From an uncultured Actinomycetota bacterium (GTDB lineage: Bacteria; Actinomycetota; Actinomycetes; Mycobacteriales; CADCTP01): a stretch of DNA of 64,000 nucleotides. The DNA is taken from positions 160,517 to 224,516 of the forward strand of contig CAVXZF010000010.1 in NCBI GenBank assembly GCA_963766325.1, read 5' to 3'. Below the pieces are notes generated by a model that saw only the letters and a program-made list of their open reading frames with translations, searched no databases and was not told the origin of the DNA. Made by a program: the position numbers and the translations under genes. This document shows positions 4,127-8,772 of the stretch, piece after piece; within the stretch, counting starts at the first letter, position 1, and the number at the start of each line of letters is the position of its first letter.

Positions 4127-4660
4127 TCAGCGGTGGCCGAGCTTGGCGGCGTATCCCTCGGCGAGCTCGTCCCACCCGTGCTCCCGGGCGTCCTGGCCGC
4201 GGACCGGTGGCACCGGCTGCCCGCCCAGCAGCCGCTCGGCGACGTCCAGGCAGAGGTGCCACCCGGCGGCCACCTTGGGCAGCCAGTCCCGGTCGGCGAG
4301 CCGGTGCCGCAGGGTCAGCCGGGTGCCGGTCCCGGTCGGAGCCAGCTCCCAGCGGAGCAGGTCGTCGCCCCAGGTGTACTCCAGCAGGGCCGGCGGCTCC
4401 GCCCGCCGGACCACCGCGGGGGTGTCCTCGCGGTCGTCACCGTCGATCATGGTGAGCGTGGCCGGCCCGGCGCCGGCCAGGTCCCGGTCCGGCTCGAACG
4501 GCGCCCACGCCCTCAGCTGCCCCCGCTCGGTGAGCGCGGCCCACACCCGGTCCGGGGCATGCCGCAGCTCGCGGACGAGGACGAGTGTCCAGTCGCCGCC
4601 GGGCGAGTCGGGCGCCTCGGCGACGACGTCGGCGAGCGGCTCGGGCGGTGGGGTCGTCAT
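4127..4660 (-). CDS. SRPBCC/AHSA1 family protein
   Basis: RELRHAPDRVWAALT...LRWEL...AAGWHLCLD; ATGA overlap with the ArsR gene. Confidence 0.88.
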   Translation of the reverse strand: MTTPPPEPLADVVAEAPDSPGGDWTLVLVRELRHAPDRVWAALTERGQLRAWAPFEPDRDLAGAGPATLTMIDGDDREDTPAVVRRAEPPALLEYTWGDDLLRWELAPTGTGTRLTLRHRLADRDWLPKVAAGWHLCLDVAERLLGGQPVPPVRGQDAREHGWDELAEGYAAKLGHR

Positions 4661-4971
4661 GGTTGCTCCTGGGAGTCGAGGTGACGCTCGAGCGCATCGA
4701 GGTGCCGGGTCCAGAGCTCCCGGTACGGCGTCAGCCAGGCGTCCAGCGCCTCGAACGGCGCAGGCTCGATCCGGTAGATCCGCTGCTGGGCGGCGGTCCG
4801 GCAGGACACGAAGCCGGCCTCGCGCAGCACCTTGAGGTGCTTGGAGACCGCCGGCTGGGCGACGGCGAGCGTGCCGACCAGCTCGCCGACGCTGCTGTCC
4901 GCGAGCCGGAGCCGGTCGAGGATCCGCCGGCGGGTCGGCTCGGCGAGGACGGCGAAGGTGTCGACCGGCAC
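4657..4971 (-). CDS. ArsR/SmtB family transcriptional regulator
   Basis: FAVLAEPTRRRIL...QPAVSKHLKVLREAG...QRIY; usual ArsR-SRPBCC pair. Confidence 0.92.
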   Translation of the reverse strand: MPVDTFAVLAEPTRRRILDRLRLADSSVGELVGTLAVAQPAVSKHLKVLREAGFVSCRTAAQQRIYRIEPAPFEALDAWLTPYRELWTRHLDALERHLDSQEQP

Positions 4972-4980
4972 CAGTCGAAC

Positions 4981-5012
4981 ATGCCGCATGGAGCATATGC
5001 CTGTCAAGGCAT
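4981..5012. promoter_or_regulatory. Two adjacent ATGC-N8-GCAT palindromes, probable ArsR operator
   Basis: atgc-cgcatgga-gcat (4981-4996) and atgcct-gtca-aggcat (4997-5012), just upstream of the ArsR start. Confidence 0.6.
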
Positions 5013-5105
5013 TCTGCTCCCTGGTGCGCTTGACGGCCCGCTGGGTTAGCGTGGTCCCGGGTTGAGTTCAGCAGCCACGGTCGACGACGACGGAGGCTGT
5101 GGGAG

Positions 5106-5873
5106 ATGACACTGGTCGCCGATACCGATCGGCGGGACCACGCCCGATCCCTCTTCGCCACGCTGGCCGAGCTGCCACCGGGCGGCCCCGAGCACCAGCG
5201 CGTGCGGGCGGAGTTGGTCGAGCTGCACCTCCCGCTGGTCCGCTACCTCGCCCGGCGGTACGCCGGCCGCGGCGAGCCGATGGACGACCTGGTGCAGGTC
5301 GCCTCGCTCGGGCTGCTCAAGGCGATCGACCGCTTCGAGATCGAGCGCGGGCTGGAGTTCAGCACGTACGCGTCGCCGACCGTGCTGGGCGAGATCCGCC
5401 GGCACTTCCGGGACCGGACCTGGGCAGTGCACGTCACCCGCGGCCTGCAGGAGCTGACCAGCGAGGTCGGCGCCGTGGTCGGCGAGCTCACCCAGGAGCT
5501 GGGCCGGGCGCCGAGCGTCCCGGAGCTGTCCGCCCGGCTGCGGCAGCCCGAGGAGCGGGTGCTGGAGGCGCTGGAGTGCCTGTCCGCGCACACCGCCCAC
5601 TCGCTGGACGCGCCGACCGGGGACGACCTCACCCTGGGTGACTCGCTCGGCGGCGAGGACGGCGGGCTGGTCGACGTCGAGATGCACGAGTCGCTCACCC
5701 CGGCGCTGGCCAAGCTGCCCGAGCGGGAGCGCCGCATCCTGCAGCTGCGCTTCTACGGCAACCTCACCCAGTCGCAGATCGCCGCCCAGCTGGGCATCTC
5801 GCAGATGCACGTGTCCCGGCTGCTGGCCCGCACCCTGGTCCGGCTGCGCGAGGACCTGATGGTCCAGGAGTGA
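5106..5873 (+). CDS. SigB/SigF/SigG family RNA polymerase sigma factor
   Basis: DDLVQVASLGLLKAIDRF, GEIRRHFRD, TQSQIAAQLGISQMHVSRLL. Confidence 0.95.
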   Translation: MTLVADTDRRDHARSLFATLAELPPGGPEHQRVRAELVELHLPLVRYLARRYAGRGEPMDDLVQVASLGLLKAIDRFEIERGLEFSTYASPTVLGEIRRHFRDRTWAVHVTRGLQELTSEVGAVVGELTQELGRAPSVPELSARLRQPEERVLEALECLSAHTAHSLDAPTGDDLTLGDSLGGEDGGLVDVEMHESLTPALAKLPERERRILQLRFYGNLTQSQIAAQLGISQMHVSRLLARTLVRLREDLMVQE

Positions 5874-5961
5874 CGACGGCCCGGACGGCGGCGGTCGGGA
5901 CCGCGCCGGCCGGGCCGGGTCGAGCGGATCAGCCGGGCCGCCGGTCGGGCGGCCGGGCCGG

Positions 5962-6354
5962 TCAGGACTGCGGCGGCTCGTCCTTGCCCGACTCCTCGGC
6001 CTCGTCCGCCTCTTCCTTGGTGTGGTGCACGGCGCCCTCGGAGTGCTCCGGCGGCCCGTAGACCGTGTAGAGCACCAGTGGGTTGGGCCCGGTGTTGACG
6101 AAGTTGTGCTTCGTCCCGGCCGGCACCGCAACCAGGTCGCCGGCCTGCACCTTGCGTTTCTGGCCGCCGACCCGGGCCTCGCCGACCCCGCTGACGAAGC
6201 TGAGCACCTGGTCGGTGTCCTCGTGCACCTCCTCGCCGATCTCGCCGTCGGCGGGGATGGTCATGATGACGAGCTGGCTGTGCTTGCCGGTCCAGAGCAC
6301 GCGGCGGAAGTCCGCGCTCTTCTCCGCGACCGTGGCGATGGTGAAGTGGTCCAT
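5962..6354 (-). CDS. Cupin domain protein
   Basis: FRRVLWTGKHSQLVIM...IGEEVH...PAGTKHNFVN...YGPPEH. Confidence 0.9.
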   Translation of the reverse strand: MDHFTIATVAEKSADFRRVLWTGKHSQLVIMTIPADGEIGEEVHEDTDQVLSFVSGVGEARVGGQKRKVQAGDLVAVPAGTKHNFVNTGPNPLVLYTVYGPPEHSEGAVHHTKEEADEAEESGKDEPPQS

Positions 6355-6410
6355 CCTCCCTCGGTGCCCCGGGGCCCGCCCGGTCAATCCCGGACGGACC
6401 CCGGGACCGG

Positions 6411-6674
6411 TCAGCCGCGGCGGCGGGTGGCGAAGTTGCGCTGGCGGTCGGGCACCGGGACCCGCCGCGCGGCCACCGGGCCGGCGATCTTGGCGGCGGC
6501 CCCGCCGCGGGCGGCGGCGCGGCGCTCGCGCCGGCTCAGCCCGGCGTCCTCCGCCGGGGTCGTCGGAGCCGCCGGGGTCGGCTCGGCCGCGGCGGGCGGC
6601 GGGCCCGGATCGGCCGGCGCCGCCGACGCGGGCGCGGCGGGCTTGGTCGGGGCGGGACGGCGGGAGCGAGACAA
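6411..6674 (-). CDS. Small Pro/Ala-rich protein with Arg-rich C-terminus, unknown function (87 aa)
   Basis: AGGAGG SD then TTG; ends LSRRERRAAARGG...RQRNFATRRRG; fills the gap between the cupin and hydrolase genes. Confidence 0.65.
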   Translation of the reverse strand: MSRSRRPAPTKPAAPASAAPADPGPPPAAAEPTPAAPTTPAEDAGLSRRERRAAARGGAAAKIAGPVAARRVPVPDRQRNFATRRRG

Positions 6675-6847
6675 TGCAGCCTCCTGGGGTGCGAGGGTGG
6701 AGGCGGGAGCACCGGGACGGCGGCCGAACGAGCGTCGCCGGGCGGGCGGTGTCACCGCGGGGCCGGGAGCCGCACCGGGGGATGTCCGCTCCGGGCACGG
6801 CGGGGGCGCTGCAGGCGCCGTCCTCAGCTGATCACCCGACCACCGTA
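6675..6847 (-). promoter_or_regulatory. Putative translational attenuator: -10 TACGGT, leaderless uORF GTG-ATC-AGC-TGA, SD-sequestering hairpin
   Basis: -10 at 6842-6847, uORF at 6824-6835; anti-SD GCCUCC (6699-6704) is complementary to SD GGAGGC (6679-6684). Confidence 0.55.
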
Positions 6848-6890
6848 CGCCCGGACGGCCGGTCATGCACCAGCTATTTAGGCTGGTCCG

Positions 6891-7766
6891 GTGTTCGAGG
6901 GCTTCGCGCTGGACCGGGTGGACGTCGGGGACGCGGTGCTGCGGGTCCGGCACGGCGGGTCCGGCCCGCCGGTGCTGCTGCTGCACGGCCACCCGCGCAC
7001 GCACGCGACCTGGCACCGGGTCGCTCCGCAGCTCGCCGCGGGCTGGACCGTGGTCTGCCCGGACCTGCGCGGGTACGGCCGGTCGACCGGACCTCCGTCG
7101 GATCCGGACCACAGCGCGTACTCGAAGCGGGCGATGGCGGCGGACGCGGTCGCGCTGATGCGCCGGCTCGGGCACGAGCGCTTCGCCGTCGTCGGCCACG
7201 ACCGGGGGTCGTACGTGGCGATGCGGACCGCGCTGGACCACCCGGCCGCGGTGGCGGCGCTGGGCGTGCTCGACTCGGTGCCGATCGGGGAGGCGCTGGC
7301 CCGCGCGGACGCCCGCTTCGCCGCCGCGTGGTGGCACTGGTTCTTCCTCGGCCAGACCGCGAAGCCGGCCGAGCGGGTGATCAGCGCCGACCCCGACGCC
7401 TGGTACGGCGGCGACCCCGCGGTCATGGGCGAGGAGGCGTACGAGGACTACCGGGTCGCCATCCACGACCCGGCGGTGGTGCACGCGATGTGCGAGGACT
7501 ACCGGGCCGGGCTCGGTCCGGACCGGGCCGCGGACGACGCCGACCGGGCCGCCGGGCGGCGGATCGGCTGCCCGACGCTGGTGCTCTGGTCCCGCCGCGA
7601 CGACATGGCCGACCTGTACGGCGACGTGCTCGGCGTCTGGCGGTCCTGGGCGGACGACCTGCGTGGCGGGGAGATCGACTCCGGCCACCACATGGCCGAG
7701 GATGCGCCGGACGAGCTGGCCGCGGCGCTGCGCGGCTTCCTGACCGAGGTGGGGTGGTGCCGGTGA
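6891..7766 (+). CDS. Alpha/beta hydrolase, haloacetate dehalogenase-like
   Basis: LLLHGHP, DLRGYG, GHDRG nucleophile elbow, WWHWFF, CEDYRA, SGHH. Confidence 0.9.
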   Translation: MFEGFALDRVDVGDAVLRVRHGGSGPPVLLLHGHPRTHATWHRVAPQLAAGWTVVCPDLRGYGRSTGPPSDPDHSAYSKRAMAADAVALMRRLGHERFAVVGHDRGSYVAMRTALDHPAAVAALGVLDSVPIGEALARADARFAAAWWHWFFLGQTAKPAERVISADPDAWYGGDPAVMGEEAYEDYRVAIHDPAVVHAMCEDYRAGLGPDRAADDADRAAGRRIGCPTLVLWSRRDDMADLYGDVLGVWRSWADDLRGGEIDSGHHMAEDAPDELAAALRGFLTEVGWCR

Positions 7767-8380
7767 CGCTGACCGAGCGGCTGACCGAGCGGGGACTGCC
7801 GGCGGTGCACGCGCAGCTCGCGCACCCGACGGTGGCCGGCATCGCGTGCGGCGACCTCGACCCGGCGGTGTTCCGGTCCTGGCTGGAGCAGGACTACCTC
7901 TTCCTGCTCGACTACGTGCGGGTGTTCTCCCGGCTGGCCTGGCAGGCGCCCGCCGGGCACCTCGGCGACCTGGTCGACCTGGCCCACTCCACCTGGCACG
8001 AGGAGCTGTCGCTGCACCGCGAGCTGGCCGGCGAGTTCGGCGCCGACCTGGCCGGGGCGAGCGCGGGACCGGCCACGGTGGCGTACACGGGCTTCCTGCT
8101 CGATGCGGCGGCCGACTACGGCCGCGGGCTGGCGGCGCTGCTGCCGTGCATGTGGGGCTACTCGACGCTGGGGCGGCTGCTGGCCGAGCGGCCGCCGGCG
8201 GAGCCGCGGTACGCCCGGTGGGTGGCGACGTACGCGGACCCCGGCTTCGCCGCGCTGGCCGACCGGTGCGGGCAGATGCTGGCCGAGGCGGCCGACGCCG
8301 GGCTGGTCGACGAGGCCACCGCCACCGCCGCGTTCGACACCGCGATGCGGCACGAGGTCGCCTTCTGGGACGTGCCCTGA
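7763..8380 (+). CDS. tenA: TenA/thiaminase II family protein
   Basis: WLEQDYLFL, LLPCMWGY, YARWVATY, EVAFW; GTGA overlap with the hydrolase gene. Confidence 0.85.
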   Translation: MTLTERLTERGLPAVHAQLAHPTVAGIACGDLDPAVFRSWLEQDYLFLLDYVRVFSRLAWQAPAGHLGDLVDLAHSTWHEELSLHRELAGEFGADLAGASAGPATVAYTGFLLDAAADYGRGLAALLPCMWGYSTLGRLLAERPPAEPRYARWVATYADPGFAALADRCGQMLAEAADAGLVDEATATAAFDTAMRHEVAFWDVP

Positions 8381-8395
8381 CGGTCGGCAGGAACG

Positions 8396-8772
8396 CCCGG
8401 GCGACGGCCCGGGGCGGCGGCCGACCCCTCGGCTGCCGCCGCCACGCCCGGCGCCGCCAGGGACGGTGCCAGCCCGCCAGGCGATCACGGGGTTGCCGCC
8501 TGGCGGGACCGGACCGCCGGACCCGATCCACGGGGGCAGACCAGGCCACGCTTCGTCCGGTCGGCGGGACCGGCCGGCGCAGGGGTCACGGCGCCGGCCG
8601 GCGACAGATCACCGCCCGGAATGCTCGCCTCCGAGCACAGCACGGCACGCGGCGCGGGTCGATGAGCCCACTGCACAATTTGCAACACTCTGCGTGACCA
8701 TCAGGGTCCACACGCGACTTCGAGTCGGCGCTGCTCAAGGGCAGCGTCCTGTCGATCTTGAGCCGGTGGACC
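8396..8772 (+). other. Intergenic array of GC-rich hairpins, candidate structured RNA or REP-like cluster
   Basis: Stems 8413-8440, 8450-8470, 8473-8507 and 8570-8601, plus a branched element at 8705-8772; no credible ORF. Confidence 0.4.

Follow-up and report, generated by a model that had tools for sequence, protein, structure and literature searches.

What might a reading frame of only three codons do at the predicted 5' end of a transcript that goes on to encode a small and very basic protein? The question is raised by a module of approximately 210 nucleotides (nt), promoter included, on the minus strand of a 64,000-nt stretch of DNA from an uncultured actinobacterium (hereafter the window, to whose full length all coordinates refer). 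An earlier note on this DNA had interpreted the module, which lies upstream of a gene for a protein of 87 amino acids (aa) at 6411-6674, as an attenuator that senses antibiotics through a leaderless upstream open reading frame (uORF). Our analysis of the locus (6411-6890) found the same arrangement of promoter, mini-open reading frame (mini-ORF), hairpin and Shine-Dalgarno sequence (SD) ahead of the small gene in 11 genomes of a single genus. The best reading of this arrangement, which we hold tentatively and at slightly less than an even chance, is a genus-specific cis-regulatory leader in which a leaderless, ribosome-loaded mini-ORF cross-talks with the structure of the leader.

Read on the minus strand, a -35-like hexamer, GTGCAT (6865-6870), is followed after a 17-nt spacer by the -10-like hexamer TACGGT (6842-6847), which has A at position 2 and T at position 6. 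The 6-nt spacer GGTCGG separates this hexamer from GTG ATC AGC TGA (6824-6835), the predicted leaderless mini-ORF encoding M-I-S, after which comes GGA. Directly after the UGA lies GGACGGCG (6816-6823), the 5' arm of a long-range helix, P0, which pairs with 6722-6715 in the minimum-free-energy (MFE) structure; the 3' arm CGCCGTCC (6715-6722) is its exact complement. The hairpin P1, GGCGC-CUGCA-GCGCC (6805-6819), begins 5 nt past the mini-ORF stop, and its 5' arm overlaps the P0 arm. Further 3', the anti-SD GCCUCC (6699-6704) can form a 6-bp hairpin (-10.5 kcal/mol, 14-nt loop) with GGAGGC (6679-6684), the SD of the small gene, located 4 nt before the TTG start (6674-6672); the stop codon is at 6413-6411. 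TACGGT, the 6-nt spacing, GTG ATC AGC TGA, the two arms, GCCTCC, GGAGGC and TTG had all been listed in the earlier note, and each was confirmed at its position.

The conservation of this layout was examined in 11 genomes retrieved via the small protein alone, without presupposing the mini-ORF. All 11 carried a NANNNT hexamer, 6-7 nt, and GTG, two sense codons and TGA upstream of the small gene, a conservation that supports this part of the earlier interpretation. Further 3' in the same genomes came a GC hairpin 4-7 nt past the stop, a leader of 151-167 nt in total, and GGAGGC-N4-start. The mini-ORF TGA was followed by GGA in 10 genomes and by GCT in the remaining one (G010). Alignment of the 11 leaders showed nine invariant columns among the first 13, with variation confined to positions 5-8 and zero indels, and the frame was always kept. 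The codon pairs ATC AGC, ACC GAC, ACC TAC and ACG AGC, corresponding to the peptides MIS, MTD, MTY and MTS, were the variants detected.

Metagenome contigs were scanned with a DNA pattern that presupposes the mini-ORF, which adds leader diversity and cannot test frame conservation. The scan gave 29 matches, 15 of which were followed by a member of this protein family (one cut by a contig end); the other 14 precede unrelated short frames and were taken as chance. The genome leaders and pattern-scan leaders amounted to 23 distinct leaders, and all 23 showed a -35 element [T/G]TGCNN, a 17-18-nt spacer, a -10 element NANNNT and 6-7 nt to the GTG, as well as an invariant GGAGGC-N4-start at the small gene. 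Outside the window, the -35 element reads GTGCGG, TTGCGG or TTGCGT. The sequence GTGAYSNRCTGAGGA was found once in the 5.50-Mb genome when both strands were searched, and its combination with a -10-like hexamer gave one genome match, compared with 99 for the loose pattern of a -10 element, RTG, two codons and a stop. As the module occurs once per genome, always before the small gene, and in all 11 genomes found through the protein, it is not a product of chance.

Because the -10 element ends 6-7 nt before the G of the mini-ORF GTG in every leader, the transcription start is predicted to fall on this G (6835 in the window), which agrees with the promoter geometry that the earlier note had proposed. 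In mycobacteria, an RTG at transcript position +1 is translated as a leaderless start, according to PMC4633059, and by this rule the mini-ORF would be translated. A promoter scan with the E. coli consensus detected nothing at the module, as expected for this promoter type. Two other uses of the 5' region were considered and rejected. A second uORF driven by the SD-like GAGGA has no conserved start codon 3' of this motif, as judged by eye, and reinitiation by a 70S ribosome scanning onward from the mini-ORF would have to cross approximately 150 structured nt, a distance that we judged too great. The promoter geometry is shared by a divergent gene for an alpha/beta-hydrolase (6891-7766, plus strand), which has TAGGCT at 6879-6884, 6 nt and then GTG at 6891; the 55-bp gap between the two strands' starts (6836-6891) would thus house two back-to-back promoters for two leaderless starts.

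The small gene, by the evidence of its codon usage and divergence, is a real gene whose peptide is under purifying selection, as the earlier note had assumed. In its frame, G+C content at third codon positions (GC3) reaches 1.00. Across the block RRERRAAARG in 20 homologues, the mean pairwise differences were 0.076, 0.038 and 0.453 at codon positions 1, 2 and 3, respectively, and synonymous sites were approximately 6- to 12-fold more variable than the other codon positions. Two longer frames were dismissed. A 712-aa open frame (6411-8549, minus strand), which spans the leader and the small gene and extends antisense to the hydrolase gene, is an artefact of stop-poor, high-G+C sequence. A longer ORF in the same frame from ATG 6866 was rejected, as GC3 upstream is not frame-specific; that start is also contradicted by the conserved boundary, which is SD-N4-start, and by non-triplet indels upstream of it among relatives.

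The 87-aa product, small and very basic, ends in ...SRRERRAAARGG...RQRNFATRRRG and is composed of a variable Pro/Ala-rich N-terminus and a conserved basic C-terminus of approximately residues 44-87 (6414-6545). It is an orphan, mostly disordered protein. Searches of Pfam and NCBIfam returned zero families, and a profile search collected 113 homologous clusters (44-121 aa), likewise devoid of Pfam domains; those clusters with a named source are labelled hypothetical, the few named sources being metagenome-assembled genomes (MAGs) of Mycobacteriales. An exhaustive comparison of the C-terminal 44-residue profile with 1.84 billion representatives retrieved only 23 proteins. Of these, 22 are small proteins in which the domain lies at the C-terminus or at most one residue away from it. 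The C-terminal consensus was [ST]RRERRAAARGG...K..GP....P.PP.R.R[ND]Y[AS][AT]RK.G, following an N-terminus that varies and is acidic or Pro-rich. AlphaFold2 with 119 sequences gave a mostly disordered chain (pLDDT, the predicted local distance difference test, 68.7; pTM, the predicted template modelling score, 0.20) with short helices at residues 48-56 (RRERRAAAR) and 81-85, the former within 10-residue blocks of mean pLDDT 72-74. Searching 177,635 PDB sequences with the profile of the C-terminal domain gave one match at E = 1.4 (Rsa4) and no ribosomal chain, and the ESM Atlas search gave only unnamed actinobacterial clusters, with no function. A single BLASTP comparison with the N protein of phage lambda (NC_001416, gene N) aligned 12 identities in 27 residues on the arginine-rich RNA-binding motif of N (E = 0.022), an alignment which, being short and driven by composition, may be taken as a lead for RNA binding and not as homology. 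In G012 (leader L016, 1541-1755 in gene orientation), the small gene appears to be one base short when compared with the near-identical metagenome copy L051, and its conserved start is thus out of frame with the conserved C-terminus; this is a pseudogene or an assembly error in a MAG that is 70% complete.

The protein profile matched 11 of 16 family genomes, all of one uncultured Mycobacteriales genus: 10 of 12 members plus the window's own genome; the other two genera, represented by two genomes and one genome, gave no match. Completeness is 79% and 81% for the two genus members that escaped the profile. A sample spanning the order yielded matches in 11 of 401 genomes and 1 of 97 genera. A covariance model, R1, was built from 18 leaders and used as a homology probe only, as its structure was not trusted. 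It matched eight of the 16 family genomes, once each and always before the small gene, and six of 151 genomes in the order sample, none of them outside the genus. The window, G007 and G010 were missed by R1; there the middle of the leader has diverged and the core of mini-ORF, P1 hairpin and SD has outlasted this divergence. A search with a five-row alignment detected one MAG locus in the genome contigs and none in the metagenome contigs. Rfam 15 contained no family matching 5800-7400 of the window or six leader-bearing loci, where it returned only chance-level microRNA hits far below the gathering score.

How could such a module act? In the reading that we favour, the conserved promoter would start the transcript on the G of GTG, and a 70S ribosome would load directly on this 5' end by the mycobacterial rule and read the three codons, M-I-S in the window. 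The frame would end 4-7 nt before P1, with its stop abutting or overlapping a G-rich, SD-like segment (UGAGGAC...) that could pair with C-rich segments further 3' in the leader. A ribosome on the mini-ORF would cover approximately nt 1-22, so that neither the 5' segment nor the 5' arm of P1 could fold; the next ~140 nt, ahead of the strong small-gene SD, would then fold differently. What the element would sense in this manner is how readily ribosomes load at the 5' end or how long they dwell there. It might respond, among other inputs, to leaderless-initiation capacity, to how efficiently termination occurs at UGA or to drugs by which initiating ribosomes are arrested. As a three-codon frame cannot sense tRNA charging, the element, if regulatory, must report initiation, termination or drug arrest. 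Any regulatory effect is putative, as is its sign. A fuller version, which we regard as unlikely, is a lineage-specific, self-contained circuit for translation status: the 70S ribosome would have to open the hairpin on its way to the stop, the fold of the leader would depend on how long the ribosome dwells, and this fold would control a mini-protein with an RNA-binding arginine-rich motif. Leaderless-initiation capacity, RF2 activity or antibiotics that arrest initiation would determine the dwell time, and the mini-protein would bind the ribosome or its own leader.

In favour of the ribosome-loaded leader stand the conservation of the frame in the 11 genomes, the constant spacing of the promoter elements, the uniqueness of the module and the survival of its core where the middle of the leader has diverged, together with the precedents compared below. 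The position of P1 counts in its favour as well: a GC hairpin of 4-8 bp beginning at leader nt 16-19 was found in 23 of 23 leaders, and its stem shows G-C/C-G swaps at five positions (nt 19-23), although this survey selected each sequence's best hairpin and is therefore biased towards pairing.

The consequences of occupancy were modelled by equilibrium folding only, with nt 1-22 of the leader forced to be single-stranded (masking) to mimic a ribosome on the mini-ORF. As a control for SD occlusion, nine leaders were tested with their upstream part shuffled, 100 shuffles each. All 23 leaders were predicted to have a largely paired SD, with a mean unpaired value of 0.22 (0.00 in the window). Masking raised SD accessibility by more than 0.10 in none of the 23, and lowered it from 0.16-0.46 to 0.04 or below in nine (eight leaders of group C and L004). 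Since masking shifts SD accessibility in these nine leaders, the 5' segment is predicted to be able to communicate with the SD region in some lineages, in a repressing direction; the window is not among them. These models suggest that occupancy of the mini-ORF represses the SD or leaves it unchanged, and does not induce.

Several results weigh against the favoured reading. GTG and TGA sit within a 16-nt block conserved as a whole, and for this reason conservation of the frame is not separable from conservation of the sequence; UGA and GGAC may have been kept for pairing. The occlusion of the SD was the same in shuffled leaders: the window value was reached by 7 of 100 shuffles, that of L002 was equalled by 10 of 100, and those of the seven other leaders by 31-68 of 100. 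In the window itself, masking nt 1-22 left the SD unchanged (0.00 to 0.00). The local folding energy of P1 was no better than that of shuffles (mean z -0.32), and the MFE of the window leader, -75.4 kcal/mol, corresponded to z = 0.28. For the duplex of the 5' arm with its partner, the mean z was -0.67 over the 23 leaders, 3 of which lay at or below 5% of shuffles, and the partner site of P0 shifts between leader groups. Double changes were detected in 2 of 21 pairs of the 18-leader alignment, none of them in the long-range helix.

The same results bear on the switch that the earlier note had proposed, in which a ribosome on the uORF would exchange two helices and release the SD. The two named pairings do exist. 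In the window, the helix of GGACGGCG with CGCCGUCC extends to a duplex of nt 9-22 with nt 110-125 (-22.1 kcal/mol). Taken alone, however, both pairings are of weak significance, as 3% of shuffled arms equal this duplex and 7 of 100 shuffled leaders match the SD occlusion. The switch itself found no support in the equilibrium models, where the 5' helix is not linked to the anti-SD hairpin and masking nt 1-22 never frees the SD. The predicted pairing of the SD does not exceed that in composition-matched shuffles.

Could the leader instead act as a structured RNA, with or without translation of its first codons? According to this explanation, which we consider possible and on the whole doubtful, the leader is riboswitch-like or is bound by a protein, possibly its own arginine-rich product; GUGA and CUGAGGAC would be kept as RNA, and translation would be incidental or blocked by pairing of the 5' end. 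A core of four helices, drawn by hand for groups B and C (18 leaders), pairs in 96% of cells, versus 32-52% when slid, and an A-U/G-C swap occurs in P2. The part adjacent to the SD is variable, like the expression platforms of riboswitches, and neither a start nor a stop would require the invariance of positions 4, 9 and 13-15, which is complete except for the GCT in G010. A product with a predicted basic helix (RRERRAAAR), whose best lambda N alignment falls on the arginine-rich motif, would also suit a protein that binds its own leader. On the other hand, covariation is sparse, and RNAalifold on the 11-leader and 18-leader alignments gave differing, weak consensus structures. The loops of P1 vary in sequence and length (3-9 nt) across the 23 leaders and those of P2 are likewise unconserved, so a sequence-specific ligand of either hairpin is not evident. 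Nor does the absence of any Rfam family at the window leader and the six leader loci favour this explanation. The mini-ORF and P1 persist in the window, G007 and G010 despite an unconserved middle of the leader, and a GTG at +1 would be translated anyway by the rule of PMC4633059.

The predicted pairing partners differ among leaders. For the 5' segment of group C leaders, pairing is best with CGCCCCCGUCCUCC, a stretch that adjoins the SD and includes the anti-SD. Of the other leaders, the two closest to that of the window, L002 and L036 (with one G-U), retain the anti-SD. In these two, the mini-ORF bases GUGAUCA (nt 1-7) are complementary to UGAUCAC/GGUCAC at approximately nt 128-134, just 5' of the anti-SD. 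The leaderless start could thus itself be base-paired there, an observation that fits blocked translation in a structured RNA; the window has lost the complement, reading UGCUCCC. The window leader (6675-6835) has approximately 75% G+C, with 75 C versus 52 G overall. Its 3' half contains 21 C versus 10 G per 40 nt, which recalls Rho-utilisation sites, and Rho-dependent attenuation may be possible. No terminator-like site was detected in 6000-7200, and the leader lacks a U-tract.

The interpretation of the earlier note, an antibiotic-sensing three-codon attenuator of the vmlR/lmo0919 type, proposes that drugs acting on the peptidyl transferase centre stall the ribosome on the uORF, that the SD opens and that a ribosome-associated factor is induced. 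Control of B. subtilis vmlR by the three-codon uORF(MIN), on which the proposal was modelled, is indeed described in PMC9226507. The length of three codons and the tolerance of the peptide are common to the frame here and the vmlR uORF (MIN, MDN or MDK). Lincosamides and pleuromutilins arrest initiating ribosomes according to the same paper, as would suit a sensor so close to the start, and the product here is small and very basic. The assignment to this class held for the order of start, two codons and stop, but not for three other features: the uORF has no SD of its own, the region 6000-7200 gave no terminator-like site, and the operon contains neither an ABC-F gene nor another resistance gene. 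In addition, masking the uORF region never freed the SD and closed it in 9 of 23 leaders, and the small protein is dissimilar to any solved ribosomal or ribosome-binding chain. We consider this explanation decidedly unlikely.

The Bacillus ermC leader and the cryIIIA STAB-SD were the origin of another idea, that of a stabiliser at the 5' end. Here the hairpin, along with a ribosome resting at the 5' GUG or at the SD-like GAGGA, would shield the mRNA from RNases that depend on the 5' end, and translation would not be switched. A start codon, GAGGA and a stable hairpin are all present within the first ~35 nt of 22 of the 23 leaders (L009 lacks the GGA). This explanation leaves the ~120 conserved nt further 3' and the one-per-genome tie to the small gene unaccounted for and gives no reason for a stop after exactly two codons; we give it little credence. 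A DNA operator over +1 to +16 may also be imagined, but the palindrome TCAGCTGA occurs only in the MIS variants, as judged by eye. The leaderless mini-ORF that communicates with its leader remains our preferred reading.

The gene next to the small gene on its 3' side encodes a Cupin_2 protein (5962-6354, minus strand; Pfam E = 9.6e-16) and lies 56 nt away. A cupin gene occupied this place at 16 of the 22 loci whose flank was long enough; at the remaining six, a GC hairpin and unrelated genes come after the small gene. As the cupin partner is frequent but not obligatory, the leader is considered to belong to the small gene. Between the small-gene stop and the cupin SD (6355-6410, minus strand) lies a GC-rich inverted repeat without a U-tract, and a similar hairpin follows the small-gene stop in the cupin-less loci; these may be I-shaped terminators or processing sites. 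A gene for a SigB/SigF-type sigma factor (5106-5873, plus strand) converges on the cupin gene, and an ArsR-type regulator gene (4657-5007, minus strand) overlaps a 344-aa minus-strand ORF (4127-5161). In the loci of L016 and L051, a similar ArsR-like gene plus another ORF lie directly 3' of the small gene.

Whatever its mechanism, the compact and sharply conserved module offers a clean test object for reporter work, and it flags an uncharacterised family of small basic proteins. Among known systems, the vmlR leader of B. subtilis resembles it in having a three-codon uORF, a start, two sense codons and a stop, with a variable peptide. As described in PMC9226507 (Takada et al. 2022), uORF(MIN) is SD-led, lies inside the stem-loop SL-1 and may encode MIN, MDN, MDK or MRK. 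A ribosome on it prevents the adjacent helix and redirects the fold of the leader; the regulated gene, an ABC-F of the antibiotic resistance (ARE) type, is controlled through an intrinsic terminator/antiterminator and at the SD. In contrast, the frame here is predicted to be leaderless, and the 6 nt between the -10 element and GTG leave no room for an SD. There is no terminator-like site, the gene encodes an orphan mini-protein and not an ABC-F, and its 3' neighbour is a cupin gene or none in the operon. The modelled effect of occupancy is neutral or repressive.

Closer in lineage, at the level of the order, are the leaderless small ORFs (sORFs) of the mycobacterial 'Cys ribulon', for which Canestrari et al. 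(10.1101/834739) propose that stalled ribosomes block a structure that sequesters the ribosome-binding site (RBS). A leaderless sORF as first cistron, predicted here, is common to both. In the Cys ribulon, tRNA charging is sensed by Cys-codon runs in the sORFs, whereas the frame here has two variable codons (I-S, T-D, T-Y or T-S), and release of the RBS upon occupancy is not predicted by our models. Beck, Fleming and Janssen (2016, PMC4965119) describe E. coli mRNAs with a 5'-terminal AUG (5'-uAUG), to which 70S ribosomes bind and whose mutation can alter expression of the downstream cistron; these likewise combine a 5'-terminal start with a canonical SD-led gene on one mRNA. Those are individual cases with uORFs of varied lengths, and the abstract of PMC4965119 does not describe a conserved hairpin or leader. 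The small protein shares with lambda N a predicted short basic helix with an RRERRA core, and differs in that neither a boxB-like conserved loop nor an antitermination domain is present here.

The lack of an SD, a terminator, an ABC-F gene and a sensing codon run sets the element apart from the vmlR-type and Cys-type members. A leaderless tripeptide uORF was not described in the literature searched, and the same literature describes a regulatory role only for leaderless sORFs that sense amino acids. According to 10.1101/834739, leaderless transcripts make up approximately a quarter of mycobacterial mRNAs. If the three-codon frame of this genus is regulatory, it would widen the known roles of leaderless mini-ORFs.

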